Shown here piece by piece: positions 9,077-25,594 of a stretch of 25,892 nucleotides of DNA. How positions within the stretch are numbered: position 1 is the first letter of the stretch; each line of letters begins with the position of its first letter. The translations under genes and the position numbers were made by a program. Under the pieces are notes generated by a model that worked only from the letters and a program-made list of their open reading frames with translations, ran no database searches and was not told the DNA's origin. Origin of the DNA: a virus (taxonomy: Duplodnaviria; Caudoviricetes). The stretch lies in IMG/VR virus record IMGVR_UViG_3300037419_001020, positions 1 to 25,892 of that record; one strand, 5' to 3'.

Positions 9077-9303
9077 TGGCTGAAAAACTATATGGACAAT
9101 TTAAAGACTTTTCAGCAGGGTTAAATGCAAAGGATGGAGCTTCATTGGCACTAGAACAAGAGTTAATTGAAGTAGAAAATGCAATATTAGGTAGAGGATT
9201 CGTACAGAAAAGATGTGGTTACGAACCTTTTTCAGTTGCTCCAACACAAAGTACATTGTTTTTATGGAATCAGTTTGGTAGTAAGAATTGGAGTGATGTG
9301 TAA
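9076..9303 (+). CDS. N-terminal fragment of tail nozzle protein with Trp-containing tail
   Basis: DFSAGLN...L...E....EN......G..QKR.GY resembles the N-terminus of podoviral nozzle/stabilisation proteins. Start ATG 9076 (RBS GAGGTG; TAATG coupling). Confidence 0.65.
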   Translation: MAEKLYGQFKDFSAGLNAKDGASLALEQELIEVENAILGRGFVQKRCGYEPFSVAPTQSTLFLWNQFGSKNWSDV

Positions 9304-10925
9304 TGGCGAATACACCAAATTATAGTTTATATAAACCGAATCGACTAGATAATGTACCAGTTGATACAACTTTATCTGATAACTTCGATAAAATTGATTA
9401 TCAAATCAAATTAAGATCAGATGAAATTACGAATTTAGATGAGAAGATTGATAATTTAATCATCCAATCTAATTTACCTCTTGTTATCCAGGAAGAAGAA
9501 AAGTTTACGATTTCAGTTGAACATACTTATAATTCTTCAACACCTCTTGAATATTGGATAACAACAATTACACCTAAAGATAGTGAAGCTTTAAAAACGT
9601 TACTTAAAAAAGATTTCGCTTACTCGACTAGCGAGTTTACAGACACGGCTAAAGAAGCACCATTAGATCATGCGGACCGTGTAAAAGGGTTATTCTCTAT
9701 TAACGCAAGTGGTTGGGATGCAGGAGCAACCGAAAAGATAGATGGCATTCAAATTAAAGATGGTGTTGTTTATCAAAATATCGCAAACTTCCCAAATTGG
9801 TACACATTAGGTGTAAATCGTGATGGTTTAATGAATGTATACCCTAACACAATGACAGGATTAGACCTTTTATCTCAAGGTATTGTGAATACATGGTCAT
9901 TCAGTATACCAATTATTATGAATGGTATAGAAGTTGATACAAGTATTTATAGTTTGTATTCTTCTTACAATCAGTTATACGCTAGGCAAATTATCGGACA
10001 AGTGAATGGAACGAATGAAATTATTGTCTTAACAGTAGATAAGTCTAGTCGTTCACAAGGTATGACATTACCACAAGCAGCAGCCATTTTATTAAGTAAA
10101 GGTTGTCGAGTTGCTTATAACCTTGATGGTGGTGGTTCTGCTCAAACGATTTATCAAGGAACTACACTAAACACACCTTCAGATGGAACATTCAGACCAA
10201 CACCAGATTTATTGTATATCTCAAAGTATGAAAACTATGATTTATACTTAGATGTTCAAAAAGAAGTTTCTGATGCGACAGGTGGGTTCGAAACACTACG
10301 AGATAAAATTAATCTATCCCAACGTTTTAAAATGACATTAGATGATGGGACAGTTGAGTACACAAGTAATACTCCGTTAGACTATAACACGATAAAAGGC
10401 ACGAAGTATTTTAGACATTATGCAGATGTTGCTAATGCAGCCAATGATTTAAACGCTCCTTTTAGTGGTACTGTTGATGTTTACGGAATAAATATACAAA
10501 GCTCATATACTTCAGCTTTACAAGTTGTTTGGGATCGACAATCTAAACAAATGGCATTTCGTTTTAATAATTTAGGTACATGGGGAAGTTGGGCTACTTT
10601 AAGAGATAAACCAGTTTACACTCCTGCTACAACTCTATTAAACTCATGGGTTAATCTAGGTGGTTCTGACCCTGTTTTACAATATTGTTTAAAAGATGGA
10701 ATTGTCTATATTAAAGGGGTTGTAAAGGGTGGTGCTGCAAATACAGTTATTACAAACTTACCTGTAGGAATGAGACCACTTACACGTTATGTAAAAACGA
10801 CTGTAGTTAACAATGGCACTGTAGCACCAGGAAGAATCTTCGTAGATCCTAACGGTGATTTAAAGTCATTAGATGCAGCAAGTGGATACTTATATATCGA
10901 AGCATCTTATCCTGCTGAACAATAG
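9303..10925 (+). CDS. Tail fibre/spike with phosphodiester glycosidase (NAGPA-like) domain
   Basis: Fibre N-terminus TPNYSLYKP...NFDKID; INASGW, ARQIIGQ, SQGMTL, AYNLDGGGS, NTPSDG..RP motifs; knob-like WGSW segment; C-terminal LLNSWVN..GIVYIKG..LPVGMRP head domain. Confidence 0.82.
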   Translation: MANTPNYSLYKPNRLDNVPVDTTLSDNFDKIDYQIKLRSDEITNLDEKIDNLIIQSNLPLVIQEEEKFTISVEHTYNSSTPLEYWITTITPKDSEALKTLLKKDFAYSTSEFTDTAKEAPLDHADRVKGLFSINASGWDAGATEKIDGIQIKDGVVYQNIANFPNWYTLGVNRDGLMNVYPNTMTGLDLLSQGIVNTWSFSIPIIMNGIEVDTSIYSLYSSYNQLYARQIIGQVNGTNEIIVLTVDKSSRSQGMTLPQAAAILLSKGCRVAYNLDGGGSAQTIYQGTTLNTPSDGTFRPTPDLLYISKYENYDLYLDVQKEVSDATGGFETLRDKINLSQRFKMTLDDGTVEYTSNTPLDYNTIKGTKYFRHYADVANAANDLNAPFSGTVDVYGINIQSSYTSALQVVWDRQSKQMAFRFNNLGTWGSWATLRDKPVYTPATTLLNSWVNLGGSDPVLQYCLKDGIVYIKGVVKGGAANTVITNLPVGMRPLTRYVKTTVVNNGTVAPGRIFVDPNGDLKSLDAASGYLYIEASYPAEQ

Positions 10926-13924: not shown

Positions 13925-16900
13925 TTGATGGGTTGGGAAAAAGATTTATATGGTACTGTCTACAAATCGCAAAAAACTAAAGATGCTGCTGCTAAACGCA
14001 AAGCAACGAATGACGCTAAAAAGCAAAGAGAAGCAGATGCTTATGATCGCGCTTTTACTTCAGGTGTTCAATCTTATGCTAAACAAAATAATATGACATA
14101 TAGCCAAGATATGAAAGACGCTATGGCTACTTATTACAATACGAAAGAGAATCATGAAAAATTTGTACAAGATAGCGTAAATGAAAGCAAAAGAAGGAAT
14201 AAAGCTGAATTAAAATCTTATGCTTCATTTGCTGCTAATCCTGATAATCAGTCTAAAATAGATGAATACAACCAAGCTAAAAAGAAGATGGGTATGCAAC
14301 CTGATAACATGGTTACCCAAAAGAAATATGACCAAATGTTTGGTTATGATACCAAAAAAGGTGTAGATAATGGGATGTTTAACCGTTATCAAGAGTATAA
14401 AACATCAAAAGATTTAAAAGTGAATCACAATGACAAGACTACCCAAAAGGGTGGTCTTTCTTTTGGTAAAACACTAGATAAATTTGTAAGTAAAGGATTA
14501 TCTGGTGCAAATAATTTTGTAGATGAATACGCACCTGGCGTTAAGAAAGATATTAAAAGTATTATTAAAAGTAAACCAGGTCAAACAGTCGTAAAAGGTC
14601 TAGACACATTAGATCGCTACACAACAGGTATTATGCGTAATATAGCAGATACTAATATCAAAGACCTAAACGAAACACAAAAATACATTGATGAACAAAA
14701 GAAAAAAGGGAAAAAGTTAAGTCTTTTCCCTAACTCTAAAAATGAGTACAGTCTAAAAACCCAATCAGTAGAGGATTTAAAAAAGTTTGTTAAAAAAGAA
14801 GCGACTGACTCAATTGATAATAAGCGTAGAGCAGATTTAGTTGATGTAAACAAAAACGCAGGTATTTCAACTGGTAGTAAATACGGAGATAAAGCCCTTG
14901 CTTTTATCCAAGAGAATACTTTAGATCCTACTAATATCGTAGGTGCAGGATTAGTGAAAACAGGGTTAAAAGCCTTAAAAGGTGTATCAAAAGCAGGTAA
15001 AGTTGTTGAAGAAGCCGACTTAATTAAAAATGTAGCTGAAAACGGTGTTAAAAAATCTGATGCTAAAAAGGTTTTAGAAGCAGTTAATAAGATAGCAGAA
15101 AAGAATAAAGCTAATGAACTTCCTAATATTAATACACTACCTAAAAATTATGAAGGGTTATATCTAATTAAAGATGAATACCCAATGCAAACTAAGATTG
15201 AGTTACAAAAGGCAAATGAAGCGATTAAAAAAGGTGACATTCAACCGAACAAAGTAGAAGATACAATCGAGGATATTAAAGCTGCACAAAACACAGCATT
15301 AACAGATCGTCAAAGAAACCTACAAAACATTAAATTACCTAATGGTAAAATCGAAGTACAACCAACTATTAAGAAGTCATTAGCTGATTTAATGGGTAAA
15401 AAAGAAAAAGCGATCAATCCAAAAGATTTAGAAGCAGAAAAACAACAACTTGAATTAATTCACCAGGCAGACAAAGAACAATTTGCTAAACAAAATAGTG
15501 ATGTCATTCAAGGTATTTCTGAAACACGACAAAAAGCGTTATCTGATTTAAGTAAACAGGAAATGGAATGGGAAGGACATCAGGCAGCAACTAAACAATA
15601 TGATGATATTATGAAAAAAGTTGGCGGTCGATTAAACATTCCAAAAGATAACCATGCAGACTTTGCCACTCAACTAGGAAAACATATGTATTCTGCTAAA
15701 GGTAAGGGGAAAGGCGACGATATCTATAAAGTTGCTGAAGATTTAGGGTTTAACAATCCTGACGAACTGATCCAATCTTTAAATAACGGTTATGCTTCAA
15801 AACAAATTGTCAAAGCAGGAAGAAATAAATTTGTTACAACAAAGGATTTAGGTGATCCAGATCCTCAAACTATTTTAGATGAAATGCACAGCCAAACAGA
15901 ATCATCAAGGCAGATCCAAAAAGATATTTCTAATTTAAGTCAATTACCAATTAAACAAGAGTTAGCTAAAACTAATCAATCGAACAAATTATTAAACTAT
16001 CTTTCTAATCAAAAAAAATCTACTGCTCTAAAAGAAGCTGTTCAGCAAGCTAGAAAGACTGGTAATACAAAAGGTTTGGTTAAGCATGCAGACGATATTA
16101 TAAAAGATTTAGAGTCTAAAGGTGTAGATGATGAAGAAATTAACACTTTAAAAGAAGAATTAAAAGGACTTAAATTAAATCTTCAAACATTCGCTGGAAA
16201 ACCTGAAGAATTAGAAAAACTCTTAAATAGGGTAGAAACAGTTAATAAAAGAATCGGTGATCGGGTAAAGAATGGATATTTCCCTAACAAAATCAAACAA
16301 GATCAATTGAAATTTGAACATGGCGAAATCGCTTCACCTAACACTGACAAAGCAATTACATCTGTTAATGATGCGTACACACCAGAAATACAAAATGAAC
16401 AAGTAATGAATTTTGAAACTGGTCAAGTTGAGCCTAAAAAATTAACTCAATCAGAAGAATTTAAAGCACGTTCAGAAAATATTGTTAATGACTTCAGCGA
16501 CAGTTTTAAAAATCCAGGTAGTTTTTCTTTATACAGAGAAACACCAGAACGTAACTTTGATAAAATATTCCCTGAAAACGCTCAAGAAATGAAGGATGCT
16601 TATTTAGAACCTACGAAGAAAGCTGAAACAGAGCGAATTAACTTCAAGAATAACATCAATGAACAAGTGAAAAAAATGTACAAGGATTTAAAAATCAGTA
16701 AAAAAGATGATGAATTAATTCAGGAGTATGGTGAAGGTAAAATTTCACTAGATGAATTAAAGAGTCGTACTGATAATTGGAAGAATGTAGAGCCTGCTGT
16801 TACATGGTACAGAAATTTATACGATCAAACATTAGAACAGATAAATAGTTCTTTAGTTAGGAATGATTACAACCCTATTCCAAAAAGAAAGGATTATTTC

Positions 16901-18538
16901 CCTCACTACAATAAAAAAGGTGGTTTGTTAAAAGATATATTCGGTATCGACAAAACAGATCATGGTTTACCTACTGATATTAACGGTTTGACAGACCAAT
17001 TCAGACCAGGAAAAACGTACTTTACTGCTGCTCAAAGACGAACAGGAGATAAAACAGCATACGGTGCATTAGAAGGGTTATCTAATTACATTGAAGGTGC
17101 TAGTAATCTGATTTACCATACAGACAATATTAAAAACATTCGTTCATTAGAAGATGCTATTCGTGAGAAATTCGGTTCTTCTGATGCTATGGATAATGTT
17201 GCAGCTTACTTACGTAACTACGGTGACCAAATGGCTGGTAAAAAAGGTAGGTTGGATCGTGGTGCTGAAGAATTATTCGGAAGAACAATGTATAACACTG
17301 CTAAAACGTTACAATCTAACATCGGAAAAGCAATGGTTGGTGGGAATGTCAATTCTGCTTTATCTGGTTTAATCCCTATTACAACAGCAGCAGCTACGAC
17401 AAGTAAGAAAGCATTAGCACAAGGATTAAAAGATACAATTGCAGCAGTCGTTAAAGATGATGGATTTAAAACACCTTTCATGATTCGTCGTATGGGTGCA
17501 GATCCTCTATATATGAACAAATGGGAAAAAGCATCTGACAAAGCTTTCTGGATGATGAAACAAGTAGATAACTTTGCTACTAACTTTATTGTTCGCTCAA
17601 AATACAGAGAGTTAATTAATAAAGGTTCATCACACGAAGCAGCAGTAAAAGGTGCTGATAACTACGCAGCAAAAGTAATGGCTGACCGTTCGAAAGGTCA
17701 ACAACCTTTGTTATTCAATCAACGTACATTAGGACCAATCACACAGTTCCAATTAGAGGTTAATAACCAATTAAGCCATATAATAAAGGATATTCCTGAA
17801 ATGGCTGGTGAAAATGCTAAAAGTAGAAAAGGTAAAATCCTTAGAACTTCAGCGATTTACGGACAATTAGCGTTATACGGTTGGTTATACAACAATCTAA
17901 GTCAAAAAGTAACTGGTAGAAGAACTGCTTTTGATCCAATTAAGTATGCTCAACAATTCCACGAAGGAAATAGCATTGAAGGTTCTAAAGGGATTCTAGG
18001 ACAAATTCCTGGAACTGGAATGGTAGTGGATGGTAGAACACCAGTAAGTGCAACATTACCAGATGTACCAGGTGCTATTCAACGTGTTCAACAATCAGAA
18101 GGTGGATTAAGTGATGTTTTAAAAGAAGTAGGTAAAGCAGGGTTACAAGGCGCTCCTTATTTAGCAGGTGTACCCGGATATGGTCAAGCTAAAAAGAGTT
18201 ATGAAGGGATTAAAGCGACTGATAAAAAAGGTTCTTATACAGATAGTGGTATGTTGCGTTACCCAATTGAAGTAAACCCTTTAAAAGCTGCTCAATTAGG
18301 TATATTCGGTCAGTATTCACCTAAAGAAGCTCAAAAATACTTTGATGAAGGTAGAAAACCATTAAGTGGTAAGCGTACTGCTAAAGTCGATTCAGCACAA
18401 GATAGACAAAAGGCTTATATAGATGTTTTGATCGACAGTGCAAACGCTAAAATCAAACGTAATAAAGGAAATGCAGAAAAGTTAAAAAAATTAAATGCTG
18501 ATTTAAAACAACTTAAACAAGAGAAAAAACAATTATAA
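13925..18538 (+). CDS. Giant putative DNA-ejection / internal virion protein (large polyvalent-like)
   Basis: 1537 aa, Lys-rich and helical; LDPTNIVGAG, KDYFPH motif, Gly-rich C-terminal region; last structural gene before lysis. Start TTG 13925 or ATG 13928 (RBS AGAGGTG). Confidence 0.7.
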   Translation: MMGWEKDLYGTVYKSQKTKDAAAKRKATNDAKKQREADAYDRAFTSGVQSYAKQNNMTYSQDMKDAMATYYNTKENHEKFVQDSVNESKRRNKAELKSYASFAANPDNQSKIDEYNQAKKKMGMQPDNMVTQKKYDQMFGYDTKKGVDNGMFNRYQEYKTSKDLKVNHNDKTTQKGGLSFGKTLDKFVSKGLSGANNFVDEYAPGVKKDIKSIIKSKPGQTVVKGLDTLDRYTTGIMRNIADTNIKDLNETQKYIDEQKKKGKKLSLFPNSKNEYSLKTQSVEDLKKFVKKEATDSIDNKRRADLVDVNKNAGISTGSKYGDKALAFIQENTLDPTNIVGAGLVKTGLKALKGVSKAGKVVEEADLIKNVAENGVKKSDAKKVLEAVNKIAEKNKANELPNINTLPKNYEGLYLIKDEYPMQTKIELQKANEAIKKGDIQPNKVEDTIEDIKAAQNTALTDRQRNLQNIKLPNGKIEVQPTIKKSLADLMGKKEKAINPKDLEAEKQQLELIHQADKEQFAKQNSDVIQGISETRQKALSDLSKQEMEWEGHQAATKQYDDIMKKVGGRLNIPKDNHADFATQLGKHMYSAKGKGKGDDIYKVAEDLGFNNPDELIQSLNNGYASKQIVKAGRNKFVTTKDLGDPDPQTILDEMHSQTESSRQIQKDISNLSQLPIKQELAKTNQSNKLLNYLSNQKKSTALKEAVQQARKTGNTKGLVKHADDIIKDLESKGVDDEEINTLKEELKGLKLNLQTFAGKPEELEKLLNRVETVNKRIGDRVKNGYFPNKIKQDQLKFEHGEIASPNTDKAITSVNDAYTPEIQNEQVMNFETGQVEPKKLTQSEEFKARSENIVNDFSDSFKNPGSFSLYRETPERNFDKIFPENAQEMKDAYLEPTKKAETERINFKNNINEQVKKMYKDLKISKKDDELIQEYGEGKISLDELKSRTDNWKNVEPAVTWYRNLYDQTLEQINSSLVRNDYNPIPKRKDYFPHYNKKGGLLKDIFGIDKTDHGLPTDINGLTDQFRPGKTYFTAAQRRTGDKTAYGALEGLSNYIEGASNLIYHTDNIKNIRSLEDAIREKFGSSDAMDNVAAYLRNYGDQMAGKKGRLDRGAEELFGRTMYNTAKTLQSNIGKAMVGGNVNSALSGLIPITTAAATTSKKALAQGLKDTIAAVVKDDGFKTPFMIRRMGADPLYMNKWEKASDKAFWMMKQVDNFATNFIVRSKYRELINKGSSHEAAVKGADNYAAKVMADRSKGQQPLLFNQRTLGPITQFQLEVNNQLSHIIKDIPEMAGENAKSRKGKILRTSAIYGQLALYGWLYNNLSQKVTGRRTAFDPIKYAQQFHEGNSIEGSKGILGQIPGTGMVVDGRTPVSATLPDVPGAIQRVQQSEGGLSDVLKEVGKAGLQGAPYLAGVPGYGQAKKSYEGIKATDKKGSYTDSGMLRYPIEVNPLKAAQLGIFGQYSPKEAQKYFDEGRKPLSGKRTAKVDSAQDRQKAYIDVLIDSANAKIKRNKGNAEKLKKLNADLKQLKQEKKQL

Positions 18539-20064: not shown

Positions 20065-20099
20065 AAAATCCCTCCTTTAATTAGGAGGGTTCTTTTTTT
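20065..20099. terminator. Bidirectional terminator between convergent genes
   Basis: AAAAT-CCCTCCT-TTAATT-AGGAGGG-TTCTTTTTT. Confidence 0.85.
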
Positions 20100-20577
20100 A
20101 TGTGTGTAATTGTCTAATCAACTCATTACCATCTATTAAGGTAATATTCGTCTTATTCGCATACTCTAACGCATCTTTCGTGAATCCAGATGAAGTAATG
20201 AAATATCCTCGTTTCACACGATCTGCAAGCATAGCTCCATTTAATTTCTGTATAGCCGGCCGGCCAACATTCCCTTTCCAATGTTTCACTTCTACATAAA
20301 TCTTTTCTTTTCCATCATAAGCAATAATATCTTTTCCCCCATCTTTACTTGCTTTTGTCACCTGGGTTTTAAATTCTCTTGTTATTTGCAAAAATGCAGC
20401 TACATAAAATTCAAAATCCCTTGGAGTCATATTGTAAAAACGTTGTCTTTCTTTAAATACTTTTAATTGATTCCATTCTAATTTTCTTTCTTTCACTAAA
20501 TACTTATTATTTATCTTAATAACGATTATTCCGAATAAAAGGAAACCGATTATTGTATATGCTGCTAACATCTCCAT
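20098..20577 (-). CDS. Mrr-type (PD-(D/E)XK) restriction-endonuclease-domain protein with N-terminal TM helix
   Basis: DFEFYVA, SKDGGKDII, YVEVKHW, VGRPAIQKL, FITSSGFT, LIDGNEL motifs of Mrr_cat; hydrophobic residues 4-22. Confidence 0.88.
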   Translation of the reverse strand: MEMLAAYTIIGFLLFGIIVIKINNKYLVKERKLEWNQLKVFKERQRFYNMTPRDFEFYVAAFLQITREFKTQVTKASKDGGKDIIAYDGKEKIYVEVKHWKGNVGRPAIQKLNGAMLADRVKRGYFITSSGFTKDALEYANKTNITLIDGNELIRQLHT

Positions 20578-20603: not shown

Positions 20604-20810
20604 CTATTCCTCATCAAAATACCATATATCTTCTACTTTTAAATCCAATTTCCGAGAAATCTTCATAGCTACTTGTAAAGTTGGTGTTCTTTCTTCTTTG
20701 ATAATTAGCGTTAATGTCGCATGAGTAATACCTACTTTTTTAGCGAATTCACCTTTTTTTATCTTTCTTTCTGCAAGGATCATTCTTAATTTATTCTTCA
20801 TTTTCATCAC
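20604..20810 (-). CDS. XRE/Cro-family HTH transcriptional regulator
   Basis: MKNKLRMILAER..EFAKKVGIT..TL......PTLQVAMKIS..L...VEDIW. True start probably 20807 or 20801. Confidence 0.92.
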   Translation of the reverse strand: MMKMKNKLRMILAERKIKKGEFAKKVGITHATLTLIIKEERTPTLQVAMKISRKLDLKVEDIWYFDEE

Positions 20811-20971
20811 CTAACAATAACTTTCTATATAAAAACTGATTGTCCTGTTAAAAAAATAAAACGGTACGTGCAATATTAGGCTGATACCTACATACGATTA
20901 ATTAAACGACAAATAAAACGAATTCACTCAAGACTTCGCAAGCGTTCTGACAAATTGAGAGGAGTGAAGGT

Positions 20972-21301
20972 ATGAGAGGTTATTATGGAATGTTATATCA
21001 AACACCTTACTTATACAGTTCTGGTGCATTAGAAAGATACTTTAAACACGCTCAAGACGAGGATGAAGTTAAAGCAATCCAACACCATATGCAAAGACAT
21101 GAAGTGTATGATGATCCATCTTATGAAGGGTTTATGAAAGTAACTAAGCTGATTCAGAAAGATCAGTTTCAGGAATATGAAACAGATTGGGATGAATTAG
21201 AAACAATGTTTACACCTTATGTCCAGTGGGATGGAACAGTCAGATTAAGACCAAATCGCTATGCAGGGAAAAATGCTTTGATTGAAAGTGAGGAGTTTTG
21301 A
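20972..21301 (+). CDS. Hypothetical protein
   Basis: Strong RBS GAGAGGAG; first gene of a translationally coupled operon. Confidence 0.75.
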   Translation: MRGYYGMLYQTPYLYSSGALERYFKHAQDEDEVKAIQHHMQRHEVYDDPSYEGFMKVTKLIQKDQFQEYETDWDELETMFTPYVQWDGTVRLRPNRYAGKNALIESEEF

Positions 21302-21483
21302 TGGACCATTTAAAACAAACAATTGAGTATATGCAGAAAGTGAAAATGGTTTTTAAAGATCATCATGATTGTTTAGGACTAAGTGAAGAAGAATCAGAGG
21401 ATTTATATAATTCAAGCTCATTTAGCACAGTTGAAAAATGGTTAATCAAACAAGGGTACGACATAGAAGGGTATGGTGAGTGA
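21298..21483 (+). CDS. Hypothetical protein
   Basis: RBS GAGGAG; overlaps both neighbours (start TTG 21298 or ATG 21301). Confidence 0.7.
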   Translation: MMDHLKQTIEYMQKVKMVFKDHHDCLGLSEEESEDLYNSSSFSTVEKWLIKQGYDIEGYGE

Positions 21484-21776
21484 TGAAAACTGAAACAATT
21501 CCTTTTCGTGAATTTATGGATGGATCATGGAAGAAACCTAAAGCTGCAAATTTACTTCCTGCTTTTGCTTTTGTACCAAATGAGCCTACAACTTTCCTGG
21601 TAACCATGGTTGGCATAGGTCTAGTTGTCTTAATCGCTGAACATTGTTTACAAGATACTGATTACGCTGACAAGATCCGTATATTTAGAACTCGATATGT
21701 TAAATATGTATTCCCTGCAAGTGTCGTGGCTACTGGTGCTTATGTATTCGTTAAGATCGTAAATATCTTAATTTAA
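21480..21776 (+). CDS. Small membrane protein preceding FtsK-like gene
   Basis: KTETIPFREFM N-terminus and two hydrophobic segments; start GTG 21480 or ATG 21483. Confidence 0.75.
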   Translation: MMKTETIPFREFMDGSWKKPKAANLLPAFAFVPNEPTTFLVTMVGIGLVVLIAEHCLQDTDYADKIRIFRTRYVKYVFPASVVATGAYVFVKIVNILI

Positions 21777-21916
21777 TCTATTCGTTTTACCTATTCGATT
21801 TTAATTTCCTGAGGTGTATAGCTATCACGAATATTGCTTTTATTGATACATTAACATTAATTCTATTTACTAACTATTCGTTTGTTGGGTAGCTATCCTT
21901 ATAGGATATATAAGGA

Positions 21917-23200
21917 GTGATTATTATTTTATTTACTTCTATTGTTTCCTCATCTATTGTTGTTGGTCTGGGTGCTTCAGTTGGGTTGATAAAACCTAAA
22001 TCAAATGATAAGAAAACGATTAAGCGATTATTCGAAATAGCAAAGCTTTGTGTAAAAGAAAAAGACATCATTAAATATCCAACATTCAAAAAGTCTGTAC
22101 CAAATGTGAACCATATATCTTATTTCTATAGACTACCTTTAGGGATTCCATCTAAATTAATTATTGATTTCCAAGAGATTTTATCAGAAGGATTAAATAA
22201 ACCTGTAGTGATTGACTTTACGAATTATCAACTTGAAGTAAAAGTATTTCACAATGAATTGATTAAAGATTATAAATGGAACAAAAATGTATTAAAACCT
22301 AATTCTTATGAGGTGTTTATTGGTAAGTCATTAACTGAAGATATTTATCATGATTTTGATTCAAGTCCTCACATCGTTATTGGTGGTGGTACTGGATATG
22401 GGAAAACAGTACTACTCAAATTAATCTTCACTGAATTAATTTTACAAAATCCAGATGATATTGAGTTTTACATTATTGATTTGAAAGAACAATTAGAATT
22501 TTTTAGATACAAAAACCTTAAACAAGTAAAAGATATTGCAGGTAATCCTGGTGAAGTATTTGAATTATTAACTGGATTAGTTACAGATATGTTTAAAACG
22601 ATTGATAAATTGAAAACAAATGGCTTTGAAACAAACATTAAAGATGTAAGTAGAAAAAGAAAATTTATTATTGTCGATGAAGCAGCAGAACTCGCACCTC
22701 ATGGAGAGCCAAAAATGAAAAGGTTATTATTTGAGTGTCAATTTATGTTAAGTGAAATAGCAAGGTTAGGTCGTGCAGTTGGATATAGATTAATTTTCGC
22801 CACTCAATACCCAACTAGCGACACATTACCAAGACAAATCAAACAAAACGCTGACTGTCGAATCGGTTTAAGATTACCAACTTATACAGGTAGCGAAGTT
22901 GTAATTGATGAAAAAGGATTAGAAAAGTTGCCTTATAAATTACCTGGTAGAGCGATCATGAAAACAGATAAGAAAACAGAACTACAGATACCAAACATAA
23001 AAGACAGTACCGTTTGGGAGGTTTTAAAGGGTTATGAAGAAGAAAAACGGAGAGAGAATAGAACAAATACTACAAAGTCTAAAAACACTGAAATTCGCAA
23101 CGAGAAGGCAGTTACAAGGGATTCACAGTCTAGGGGGGATAAGAAACGCTCAAAGACTACTGAAAAGCCTAGTGGAGATGGAATTATTATCAGTGACTAA
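21917..23200 (+). CDS. FtsK/SpoIIIE-family ATPase with N-terminal TM helix
   Basis: PHIVIGGGTGYGKT Walker A, IIDLK, IIVDEAAEL Walker B, ARLGRAVG..LIFATQYP, LPGRAI. Start codon uncertain. Confidence 0.93.
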   Translation: MIIILFTSIVSSSIVVGLGASVGLIKPKSNDKKTIKRLFEIAKLCVKEKDIIKYPTFKKSVPNVNHISYFYRLPLGIPSKLIIDFQEILSEGLNKPVVIDFTNYQLEVKVFHNELIKDYKWNKNVLKPNSYEVFIGKSLTEDIYHDFDSSPHIVIGGGTGYGKTVLLKLIFTELILQNPDDIEFYIIDLKEQLEFFRYKNLKQVKDIAGNPGEVFELLTGLVTDMFKTIDKLKTNGFETNIKDVSRKRKFIIVDEAAELAPHGEPKMKRLLFECQFMLSEIARLGRAVGYRLIFATQYPTSDTLPRQIKQNADCRIGLRLPTYTGSEVVIDEKGLEKLPYKLPGRAIMKTDKKTELQIPNIKDSTVWEVLKGYEEEKRRENRTNTTKSKNTEIRNEKAVTRDSQSRGDKKRSKTTEKPSGDGIIISD

Positions 23201-23636
23201 ATGGGGGAATGAACACGTTTATTATTTATCTAAAAATGGTGCTTCTTATGTTGGTACTAATCCAATGAAGAAAAGTATTCAAATAGATCATCACTTATTA
23301 AGAAATGAAGCGTGGATGATGAGTGGACTTCCAAAATGGGATATAGAAAAACCAATTATTTTTTCAAAAGATGGAGAAAAGAAACAGATTATACCAGATG
23401 CAAGATATAAAACAGATACGCTTAATTGTATTGAAATTGATCGTAAGCAGAGCATGGTTCGAAATAGAAAGAAAATGGAGTTATACGGAAAATTAAATGA
23501 GTTATTTCAAATTAAAAACAATAAAAAAATTATCCTTAAAATCTTTACTACATTGAATTCAAGGAAAATCCTATTTGAGAACTTAGCAGGGGAACAAGGT
23601 TTAGTATGTGAAGTTTATGTAATTGAAGATGTATAG
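23034..23636 (+). CDS. Replication-relaxation family protein (wHTH plus PD-(D/E)XK-like domain)
   Basis: LKFATRRQLQ..H, YYLSKNG, DHHLLRNE, IIPDA, CIEIDR motifs; adjacent to FtsK-like gene. Confidence 0.82.
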   Translation: MKKKNGERIEQILQSLKTLKFATRRQLQGIHSLGGIRNAQRLLKSLVEMELLSVTKWGNEHVYYLSKNGASYVGTNPMKKSIQIDHHLLRNEAWMMSGLPKWDIEKPIIFSKDGEKKQIIPDARYKTDTLNCIEIDRKQSMVRNRKKMELYGKLNELFQIKNNKKIILKIFTTLNSRKILFENLAGEQGLVCEVYVIEDV

Positions 23637-23645
23637 GAGGTTATT

Positions 23646-23897
23646 ATGAATTATCAATCTGAAATCATTAAAAAGAATCCTGTTATGGTAAACGGTCAAT
23701 TTGGAGTGTATTCATATGTTGCGAAACTAAACAAACAGAAAAGAACAGGAGTTGCAGCGAGTAAAGTTGTTCAATTAAAAATTTTATGTGGTGGTGAAAC
23801 ATTAGTACATTATGACAATGGTTGGGTGAAAGGTGATCGGTATTTTAGTTTGTATCAACCGTTAGTCGAACATTTAAACAAATTAAAAATGAAATAG
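23646..23897 (+). CDS. Hypothetical protein
   Basis: RBS AGGAGG; LVHYDNGW motif; no confident family. Confidence 0.75.
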   Translation: MNYQSEIIKKNPVMVNGQFGVYSYVAKLNKQKRTGVAASKVVQLKILCGGETLVHYDNGWVKGDRYFSLYQPLVEHLNKLKMK

Positions 23898-23907
23898 GAG
23901 GGTTATT

Positions 23908-24108
23908 ATGTTATCTGAAGAAAGAACAGCTTGTTTATCTATACTAAATATGGATTTTAAAAAAGGTGATGAATTAAAATTTAGATTGTACGATGGAGAA
24001 ATAATTGAAGGTCGATTCTTCCGTTACATTTACAAAGGCTTTGTCGTTAAGGATAAAGGTGAGTTTAAAAGAGTAAGATGTTTAGATGTTGAATACTTTA
24101 TAGTCTAG
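23908..24108 (+). CDS. Small beta-barrel protein, possibly YolD-like
   Basis: RBS AGGAGG; LKFRLYDGEIIEG...RVRCLDV pattern suggests an SH3/Sm-like fold; family call tentative. Confidence 0.55.
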   Translation: MLSEERTACLSILNMDFKKGDELKFRLYDGEIIEGRFFRYIYKGFVVKDKGEFKRVRCLDVEYFIV

Positions 24109-24168: not shown

Positions 24169-25560
24169 TCAAATAAACTTGATGTCCTTAACTTCGTAAC
24201 TATATTTATATTGAACTCCATGTCTTTCAACAATAAAAGATCCTATTATCATACTAACTAATGTTTTCTTCTCGTATTCTGTTAAACTTGACCAGTTCTC
24301 TTTAATGTTTAATAATAGTTCTTGTATATCTTTTTTTGAATGTGATTGAGATGGAACTATGTTTTGTAGTTTCTGCTGAATCACTTTTTCTTTTTCATTT
24401 TCCTCTTTCATTAACTCGGTGTATTCTTCATCATTCATCATATCGTTTGCCCATGCGTATGACCATTTTTTCCTACGTTTCGCAATTGTTTTTAATTCTT
24501 GTTCTAAATCCCCTGTTTCATCTTCTTGTTCTTCTATTGAAGTGTCAACCTCATCTAAACCTACTTCTGCTTCTATTTTAGTTAATTCTTTTAAGAAAGC
24601 TTCTTCTAATACATCAATCGGAATATTAACATTACAAACCTTTATACTTCTTCCTTTACATCTGTAACTTTTGTATATTTTACCTCTTGTAGTTGTTTTA
24701 GAACCAATTAACGGTCTACCACAGCTACAAGTAGCAATTCCAGAAAAAACATAATCACTAGCTGCTGCTCTTGGGTGCTTTAATGATCTTATTTTCATGT
24801 GTGTTTGTACTTGTTCAAATATTTCTTCACTAACAATAGGTGGGACTGAATCCTCTACTTCAAAGTAGTTAGATGTATTCCTTCCCCAACGTAACGAACC
24901 TTTATAAAGTGGGTTTTTTAAGATTTGATATATCTGTACATCTGACCACTTTGCACCAGGAGTACCAATTAAATCATTTGCTATTTTATAAGTGCTTTGA
25001 CCTTCTATATATCGCATGAAAATCCTTTTAACTATTTTCGCTTCTTCAGGAATGATCGACAATTCACCATTTTCTAAGGAATAGCCAAAAGGCTTCACAT
25101 GTGCAGCGTACTTACCTTGCCTTACCTTTTCCTCTAAACCGACTCTAACACGTTCCCCTATGTTTTCCCTTTCCCACTGTGCTAACGCAGCTACAATGGT
25201 TATAAAAAGCCTTCCCATAGCTGTTGTTGTATCATAGACTTCTGTTGCAGATTTAAACTTACAATCATGTTTATCAAAATGCTCTAACAGTTTATATAGG
25301 TCTAATACAGATCGGGTCAACCTGTCCAATTTATAAACAAGCACACAATCAATCAAACCCATTTTAATATGTTCGTTCATTCGTTGTAATTCTGGTCTGT
25401 CCATATTTTTAGCAGAAATACCTTCATCTATATAAAAACCTATCACTTCCCAATCCTGGGAATCACAATAAGCTTGTAGTCGCTTCTTTTGTGCAGAAAT
25501 CGAATAACCTTCCTGGACTTGTTCTTCAGTTGAAACACGCACATATATTGCAGTTCTCAT
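24169..25560 (-). CDS. Large serine recombinase (phage integrase)
   Basis: AIYVRVST catalytic Ser, DRPELQRM, VYKLDRLTR, AQWERENIGER, PFGY recombinase domain, CSCG...YRC...C zinc ribbon, coiled coil. Start ATG 25560 (RBS AAGGTG). Confidence 0.96.
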   Translation of the reverse strand: MRTAIYVRVSTEEQVQEGYSISAQKKRLQAYCDSQDWEVIGFYIDEGISAKNMDRPELQRMNEHIKMGLIDCVLVYKLDRLTRSVLDLYKLLEHFDKHDCKFKSATEVYDTTTAMGRLFITIVAALAQWERENIGERVRVGLEEKVRQGKYAAHVKPFGYSLENGELSIIPEEAKIVKRIFMRYIEGQSTYKIANDLIGTPGAKWSDVQIYQILKNPLYKGSLRWGRNTSNYFEVEDSVPPIVSEEIFEQVQTHMKIRSLKHPRAAASDYVFSGIATCSCGRPLIGSKTTTRGKIYKSYRCKGRSIKVCNVNIPIDVLEEAFLKELTKIEAEVGLDEVDTSIEEQEDETGDLEQELKTIAKRRKKWSYAWANDMMNDEEYTELMKEENEKEKVIQQKLQNIVPSQSHSKKDIQELLLNIKENWSSLTEYEKKTLVSMIIGSFIVERHGVQYKYSYEVKDIKFI

Positions 25561-25594
25561 AATAATCACCTTATCATTTTTTTATACAGGTAAT

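Follow-up and report, generated by a model that had tools for sequence, protein, structure and literature searches.

The DNA analyzed here (the window) is the whole 25,892-nucleotide (nt) stretch of the Caudoviricetes record IMGVR_UViG_3300037419_001020, and it carries on its plus strand (20972-24108) a cassette in which a TcpA/FtsK-type ATPase is paired with a relaxase-like protein of the Replic_Relax (MOBC-type) family. This cassette is real and has been published: it belongs to the phage DNA translocation operon that Pathria et al. (2012; PMC3357382) defined in 0305phi8-36, SPO1, GBSV1 and Gamma/Wbeta. It represents a variant of a conjugative processing module (TcpA-like plus MOBC-like, no channel) without a settled function, and is frequent among phages of Bacilli that form spores. 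The interpretation that we prefer, at somewhat less than even confidence and on the basis of sequence, is that the cassette would act as a sporulation-timed, channel-less mini-conjugation unit moving the element's own DNA from the mother cell to the forespore. What this study adds is evidence on regulation and on a candidate origin, through which such a transfer becomes directly testable.

Conservation of the ATPase-Relaxase Pair

The comparative analysis covered 175 loci, i.e., the window and 174 others (one single locus, 13 GenBank phages, the best 80 of 327 viral matches and the best 80 of at least 312 genome matches), which dereplication at <70% ATPase identity reduced to 61, and removal of two loci with cut upstream DNA to 59 representatives. 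The ATPase gene is directly followed by the relaxase-like gene in 170 of the 175 loci, a linkage that is not due to chance; the remaining five are one truncated locus, one fusion and three loci without relaxase. The fusion is a natural 613 aa ATPase-Replic_Relax protein (L173:6004-7845, Cytobacillus solani record). The three loci for which the fetched DNA contains no relaxase (L144, L167 and L171) also have no gap before ftsK; two of them, L144 and L167, have a pilin-like gene directly after the ATPase.

The ATPase (21917-23200; PF01580, E 7.5e-14; phrog_1358, E 7e-101) consists of an N-terminal anchor followed by alpha and beta motor domains, and all 62 sequences compared keep Walker A (G157/G162/K163), Walker B (D254/E255), Q297 and R345 unchanged. 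TcpA of the Clostridium perfringens plasmid pCW3 (PDB 6O1W-6O1Z) is its best match by sequence and structure, both in the profile search against PDB (E 2e-44, with FtsK at E 2.5e-31) and for the structure model (6O1Z, TM-score 0.66), and the protein is a PF01580 motor nearer to TcpA/FtsK than to VirD4. The likeness to SpoIIIE that had been claimed in a preliminary description of this DNA is therefore replaced by a likeness to TcpA: the alpha/beta motor fold is common to SpoIIIE and FtsK (TM-score about 0.6), but the C-terminal gamma winged helix was not found in the window ATPase, whose residues 381-427 are of low confidence and unconserved in the model (across the 62 sequences the tail after position 360 amounts to 15-93 unconserved residues), and the gene is tied to a relaxase-like one. 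The membrane anchor of the same description is present, albeit as one short N-terminal hydrophobic stretch (51/59 representatives), whereas the anchor of SpoIIIE is a multi-pass domain. pCW3 itself differs in having a full FA-type type IV secretion system (T4SS) and a tyrosine-recombinase-like relaxase, neither of which is in the cassette. As a side note, the annotated start of Wbeta ftsK (L002:2830-4119) is probably about 36 codons too early, a later start having a ribosome-binding site and a preceding palindrome.

The relaxase-like protein (23034-23636) matches PF13814 (E 2.4e-10; 41.3 bits at a cut-off of 25.3), a family equated with MobC (PMC5357655). As in the MOBC relaxases pAD1 TraX and CloDF13 MobC, an N-terminal winged helix-turn-helix (wHTH; model residues 1-76, MarR/PadR match with Z 10.6, root-mean-square deviation 1.3 and 64 aligned residues) accompanies what may be a restriction-enzyme-like core, here an acidic PD-(D/E)xK-like predicted nuclease with weak Foldseek matches to FokI, EndoMS and Bax1 (none at E<=0.001). 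Residues D122, E134, D136, N144, K147 and Y151 are invariant in 46 of 46 sequences, and the motif reads E-x-D-x-x-Q-x-M-x-x-N-x-x-K-x-x-x-Y, with Lys at +6 not kept, in contrast to E-x-E-R-x-x-K in the CloDF13 fragment. The alignment to CloDF13 mobC is in register and not significant (E=0.064), a weak comparison, as the CloDF13 record has mobC in fragments only. A relaxase profile had no match among PDB sequences, and the results of a wide fold search were filled by wHTH proteins. A shorter, 152 aa call of this gene was rejected, since the wHTH is conserved upstream of that start. Another difference from MOBC systems is the partner, TcpA-like instead of VirD4; this pairing is unusual, since TcpA is never found with MobC in a survey of integrative and mobilizable elements (IMEs; PMC5357655).

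Of the conjugation-type processing core posited in the preliminary description, the TcpA-like ATPase and the MOBC-type protein are thus both in place, whereas the scans revealed no partner channel genes. None of the 26 main open reading frames (ORFs) scanned in this partial genome window matches a T4SS family, in agreement with the reported lack of type IV secretion genes, and no VirB4 or other mating-pair gene was found among these ORFs or among the scanned flank-protein clusters (125 of 219, from 46 genome loci, within 6 kb). The same scans identified no wall hydrolase, adhesin or channel among the cassette genes.

The third conserved component, a candidate for a membrane partner or pore, is the 98 aa protein with two hydrophobic, presumably transmembrane (TM), segments (21480-21776). 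A small two-TM gene lies upstream in 24/59 representatives (one of these being a holin), and a longer membrane gene downstream in 15/59 (13 of one family). The long membrane forms show weak matches to T4SS_pilin or TrbC in 12 of the 13 tested, one of them above the cut-off, and the window protein shares an N-terminal motif with the longer pilin-like forms (hhalign 94.7%, over 21 columns only). The first gene of the cassette, encoding a 109 aa protein (20972-21301; phrog_4616), is semi-conserved, with relatives in 98/175 loci yet in only 6/59 representatives, and gave no usable match in an Atlas search; other Atlas searches likewise yielded no lead of use. The 61 aa ORF (21298-21483; kept in 3/175 loci and absent in the close relative L095) and the 83 aa and 66 aa ORFs (23646-24108; 4/175 and 2/175 loci) are lineage-specific extras and not core parts.

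Promoter Signals in the Leader

A de novo motif search over 1200 nt of upstream DNA yielded a sigma-H-like motif along with coding and low-complexity patterns and missed the sigma-E motif, which appeared only when the search was restricted to non-coding gaps, where two bipartite motifs were recovered. The sense motif, GnACAgGCAatat-N10/11-nnnCATAtAnT (20864-20898, plus strand, 16.0 bits in the window), reached at least 12 bits in 20/56 leaders vs. 2/56 on the opposite strand, 4/560 shuffles and 7/562 other intergenic strands, as scored in held-out mode with seeds found on the full set (three more of the 59 representatives had no usable leader). We have also applied an independent matrix built from 15 published sigma-E promoters, picked by our own search terms (PMC517825 supplement; e.g., TCATATT-14-CATAGACT and TCATAAA-13-CATACATT), to a set from which three short leaders were dropped and to which phIS3501 and two plasmids were added; it gave at least 10 bits in 11/59 leaders vs. 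0/59 antisense, 1.9 expected and 21/458 other intergenic strands. The sigma-E-type -35 and -10 elements, tested with 13-15 bp spacing, are enriched across loci, and the site selected in the window by the matrix (GCAATAT-14-CATACGAT, 20870-20898) is identical to that of the de novo motif. The -35 elements of sigma-E and sigma-K have been distinguished as ATA and AC, respectively, the -10 being common to both (PMC3789822); literal patterns of sigma-F/G (0-1/59), sigma-K (0/59) and sigma-A (0/59) were not enriched in the leaders. The window motif is preceded by a degenerate SpoIIID-like box resembling published SpoIIID sites (TTGGACAGGT or AGGGACAAGC; PMC517825), and both boxes are kept in L095. 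Overall, the enrichment of a sigma-E-type promoter motif in these leaders suggests that expression is likely timed to sporulation and takes place in the mother cell.

The second, antisense motif (AGGA..N..GAA[T/A]; 20820-20851, minus strand, 11.1 bits in the window) reached 12 bits or more in 22/56 held-out leaders, as compared with 2/560 shuffled sequences and 18/562 strands from other intergenic regions, and resembles the sigma-H consensus. It faces an XRE/Cro-C1 helix-turn-helix (HTH) regulator of 65-68 aa (20604-20810, minus strand; PF13443, PF01381) that is divergent from the cassette. A divergent XRE-like gene is found in 40 of the 56 scored representatives, and the sigma-H-like motif tracks it (28/40 with XRE vs. 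1/16 without). Among the 13 GenBank phages with the pair, five have an integrase and eight have none; XRE is present in all five of the former and in none of the latter, and we predict that it represses the cassette in lysogens.

A Candidate Origin Before ftsK

The non-coding gap at 21777-21916, for which the preliminary description had suggested a nicking assay, has origin-like features and may be considered a candidate origin. It contains CTATTCG at 21778, 21791 and 21874, TAGCTATC at 21819 and 21890, and a palindrome, TATCCT-TAT-AGGATA (21894-21908), with short repeats 20-115 bp upstream, so that repeats stand apart from a putative nick site, as described for TraX, which binds five repeats 70-120 bp from its nick site (PMC12857230). 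A perfect stem of at least 6 bp precedes ftsK in 22/47 loci vs. 155/1880 shuffles, and an RRC|T-flanked hairpin, a pattern defined after viewing the data, in 16/48 vs. 45/4800 shuffles and 0/206 other genes. Whole-gap folding gave z=-1.67. Direct repeats of at least 8 nt are only modestly enriched (26/46 vs. 740/2300), and a general repeat array in the gap is therefore not claimed. Alternatively, the hairpin may serve as an operator or form a structure in RNA. It is followed by a GGTGGCGC-like word at L006, L007 and L010-L012, which comprise several phages without an integrase as well as chromosomal loci.

Distribution

Similar pairs in other Bacillus phages were mentioned in the preliminary description; the relaxase-like protein matches 105 phage records, 97 of them Bacillus and 6 Geobacillus. 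A link to spore formers, for which a synteny survey had been suggested, is supported: among 401 genomes of the class, the relaxase occurs in 20/268 SpoIIID-positive vs. 0/133 SpoIIID-negative ones (p=6e-4 without the center genome). The closest named ATPase relatives are from Bacillus sp. AFS041924 (87%) and Gottfriedia sp. (80%), and 123 plasmid records match the ATPase at E<=1e-20. In three B. cereus-group plasmids (L175-L177) the same four-gene cassette stands with a convergent HTH gene, and a rap-phr pair lies beside one of them. A role in DNA injection or packaging, injection having been suggested earlier (PMC3853050), was rejected, as 3/3 plasmid cassettes have no phage structural neighbors within the stretches fetched.

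Proposed Mechanism and Alternatives

In the sequence of events that we favor, sigma-E, perhaps tuned by SpoIIID, would drive the operon after polar septation, as the motifs suggest; the wHTH-nuclease protein, judging by its family, would bind the repeats and nick at the hairpin before ftsK; and the anchored TcpA-like ATPase, a motor by its fold and without a DNA-recognition domain of its own, would then take the relaxase-tagged DNA. More speculatively, as regards both direction and channel, this DNA might cross the apposed septal/engulfment membranes via the two-TM protein or a host channel, in which case no VirB4, wall hydrolase or adhesin would be needed. A phage infecting a septated cell would land mostly in the mother cell, which lyses. 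The gain would fall to copies of a phage or plasmid that are left behind in a mother cell bound to die, and most of all to a phage infecting a sporulating cell. Supporting this, 8 of the 13 phages that carry the pair lack both integrase and XRE, and a sporulation-only job would fit the lack of a plaque defect upon deletion of a related operon (PMC3357382). XRE, timed by sigma-H, would hold the operon silent in lysogens; a lysogen without need for forespore transfer would explain why the earlier, sigma-H-timed repressor is found on integrating elements. Excised prophage DNA, the substrate originally envisaged, is unsupported, since these eight phages are integrase-less and a lysogen's forespore would inherit the prophage anyway.

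A broader formulation is possible but doubtful: Bacillus phages, both lytic and temperate, and certain plasmids would carry an intracellular conjugation machine of three genes, fired by mother-cell sigma-E to inject their genome across the sporulation membranes into the forespore and silenced in established lysogens by a sigma-H-timed repressor. The active entrapment in spores that this would imply, by conjugation inside a single sporangium, is to be regarded as just as tentative.

Several observations weigh against forespore transfer. Timing gives no direction: mother-cell expression fits export equally, and hitch-hiking too. The window's sigma-E-type site scores 7.8 bits under the independent matrix (p=0.08 alone) and is outscored by six minus-strand sites elsewhere in the window; the -35 element has A where 13 of the 15 published promoters have T. 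By the same matrix only 13/59 leaders have p<=0.05, including, of the eight integrase-less phages, only PK3.5 and BMBphi, and neither plasmid leader. The provenance of the seeds, of the published promoters and of the hairpin pattern, as given above, counts in the same direction. The pilin profile had no match in the window's 98 aa protein or in seven short forms. The restriction to spore formers is confounded by lineage, the relaxase profile having been built from Bacillales, and 2 of the 105 relaxase-bearing phage records are labelled Staphylococcus phage. Finally, ftsK of phage Fah is listed among its 'delayed' infection genes (PMC4113786).

The best-surviving alternative, which we nevertheless consider unlikely, is an IME-like mobilization module, whose relaxase, coupling protein and origin of transfer would make use of the mating channel that a conjugative element in the same host provides, and so gain access to another cell. 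A channel-less TcpA is the anatomy of 83/144 streptococcal IMEs, and the assignment of PF13814 to MobC comes from the same survey (PMC5357655), while the weak pilin or TrbC matches of the long membrane forms and the 123 plasmid records are also in its favor. It leaves unexplained, however, the putative mother-cell promoter, the absence from all 133 SpoIIID-negative genomes and the retention in eight integrase-less phages, and the TcpA-MobC combination is the very one that the survey lacks.

Rather unlikely as well is an export on the model of actinomycete TraB/Spd, either out of the sporulating mother cell into neighbors or through the vegetative septa of chains or biofilms, which would amount to the virion-free spread proposed in PMC3357382 (the virion-independent transfer of the preliminary description is thus not a new idea). 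Anatomy and timing would be the same as for transfer to the forespore, and in Actinobacteria one FtsK-type protein, with spread genes adjoining, is enough to move DNA without a T4SS (PMC3218068). Yet TraB, from a different phylum, moves unprocessed, unnicked double-stranded DNA and binds clt itself (PMC3218068). The cassette, by contrast, almost invariably comes with a relaxase-like gene, and it has neither wall hydrolase nor adhesin nor channel.

Less probable again is a purely intracellular role in replication or segregation, in which the hairpin would serve the nuclease as a start site for rolling-circle replication, while the ATPase would tether or partition the circle in stationary phase or sporulation. 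The PHROGs label (replication initiator), the multifunctionality possible for MOBC proteins (PMC5714925) and the hairpin origin would all fit, but replication requires neither a membrane ATPase of the coupling type nor pilin-like partners, phage Pony has separate replication genes (PMC3853050), and the silent deletion of the related operon (PMC3357382) argues in the same sense. Least probable of all is defense or sporulation sabotage, in which the ATPase-nuclease pair would destroy the DNA of rivals or of the host within the mother cell: several loci lie in a variable island with Mrr, SIR2 and HipA-like genes, but the PADLOC matches of the ATPase (SspH, mad8 and HerA) are partial and limited to the shared ATPase core, the relaxase has none, no single system was matched full-length by both components, TcpA and FtsK rank far above HerA, and the specific hairpin in cis suggests that the DNA acted on is the element's own.

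Compared with the operon of PMC3357382, the likeness of the window cassette lies in a CloDF13 MobC-related relaxase adjoining translocase and membrane genes (the Gamma/Wbeta homologs are about 50% identical for the ATPase and 39% for the relaxase), and the difference in a proposed link to sporulation, as the accessible text of that paper contains no instance of 'sporulat' or 'spore' by word count and describes orf201 as VirD4-like. The phage DNA translocation operon is also mentioned in PMC11526630. No functional study tying the pair to sporulation was found in the openly accessible literature, where genome announcements mentioning both 'forespore' and 'SpoIIIE' may voice the spore idea. The promoter, hairpin and XRE signals provide exact sites to mutate, and infection after septation provides a condition that plaque assays miss. 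Transfer to the forespore, if true, would mean that DNA passes from one compartment of a developing cell into the other, and would offer mobile elements a way to persist in spores. It bears on the questions of how phage genomes enter endospores and why a dispensable FtsK-relaxase pair is retained by so many Bacillus phages.

Genomic Neighborhood

The window, a partial phage record, contains in order a terminase, a P22-like portal, structural genes, holin, amidase, an Mrr-like gene, XRE, the cassette and a serine integrase. All ORFs named in the preliminary description (the operon, the divergent XRE, the lysis genes upstream and the integrase downstream) are present where it had placed them, and its location of the cassette between lysis genes and integrase holds except for an overlooked gene between the endolysin and XRE, which encodes an Mrr-like nuclease with a hydrophobic N-terminus (20098-20577, minus strand); similar genes flank other loci. 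The large serine integrase (24169-25569, minus strand; PF00239, PF07508, PF13408) is a convergent neighbor and not a part of the cassette. In six loci (L113, L116, L121, L126, L137 and L142) the cassette forms the edge of the element beside host comG, comF-like, mreB or yqhG, which suggests insertion in or near competence loci. Elsewhere in the window, a 1537 aa protein (13925-18538) with no Pfam or PHROG match probably belongs to the virion proteins that this phage with a P22-like portal ejects, and a protein of the structural region (9303-10925) carries an NAGPA phosphodiester glycosidase domain.

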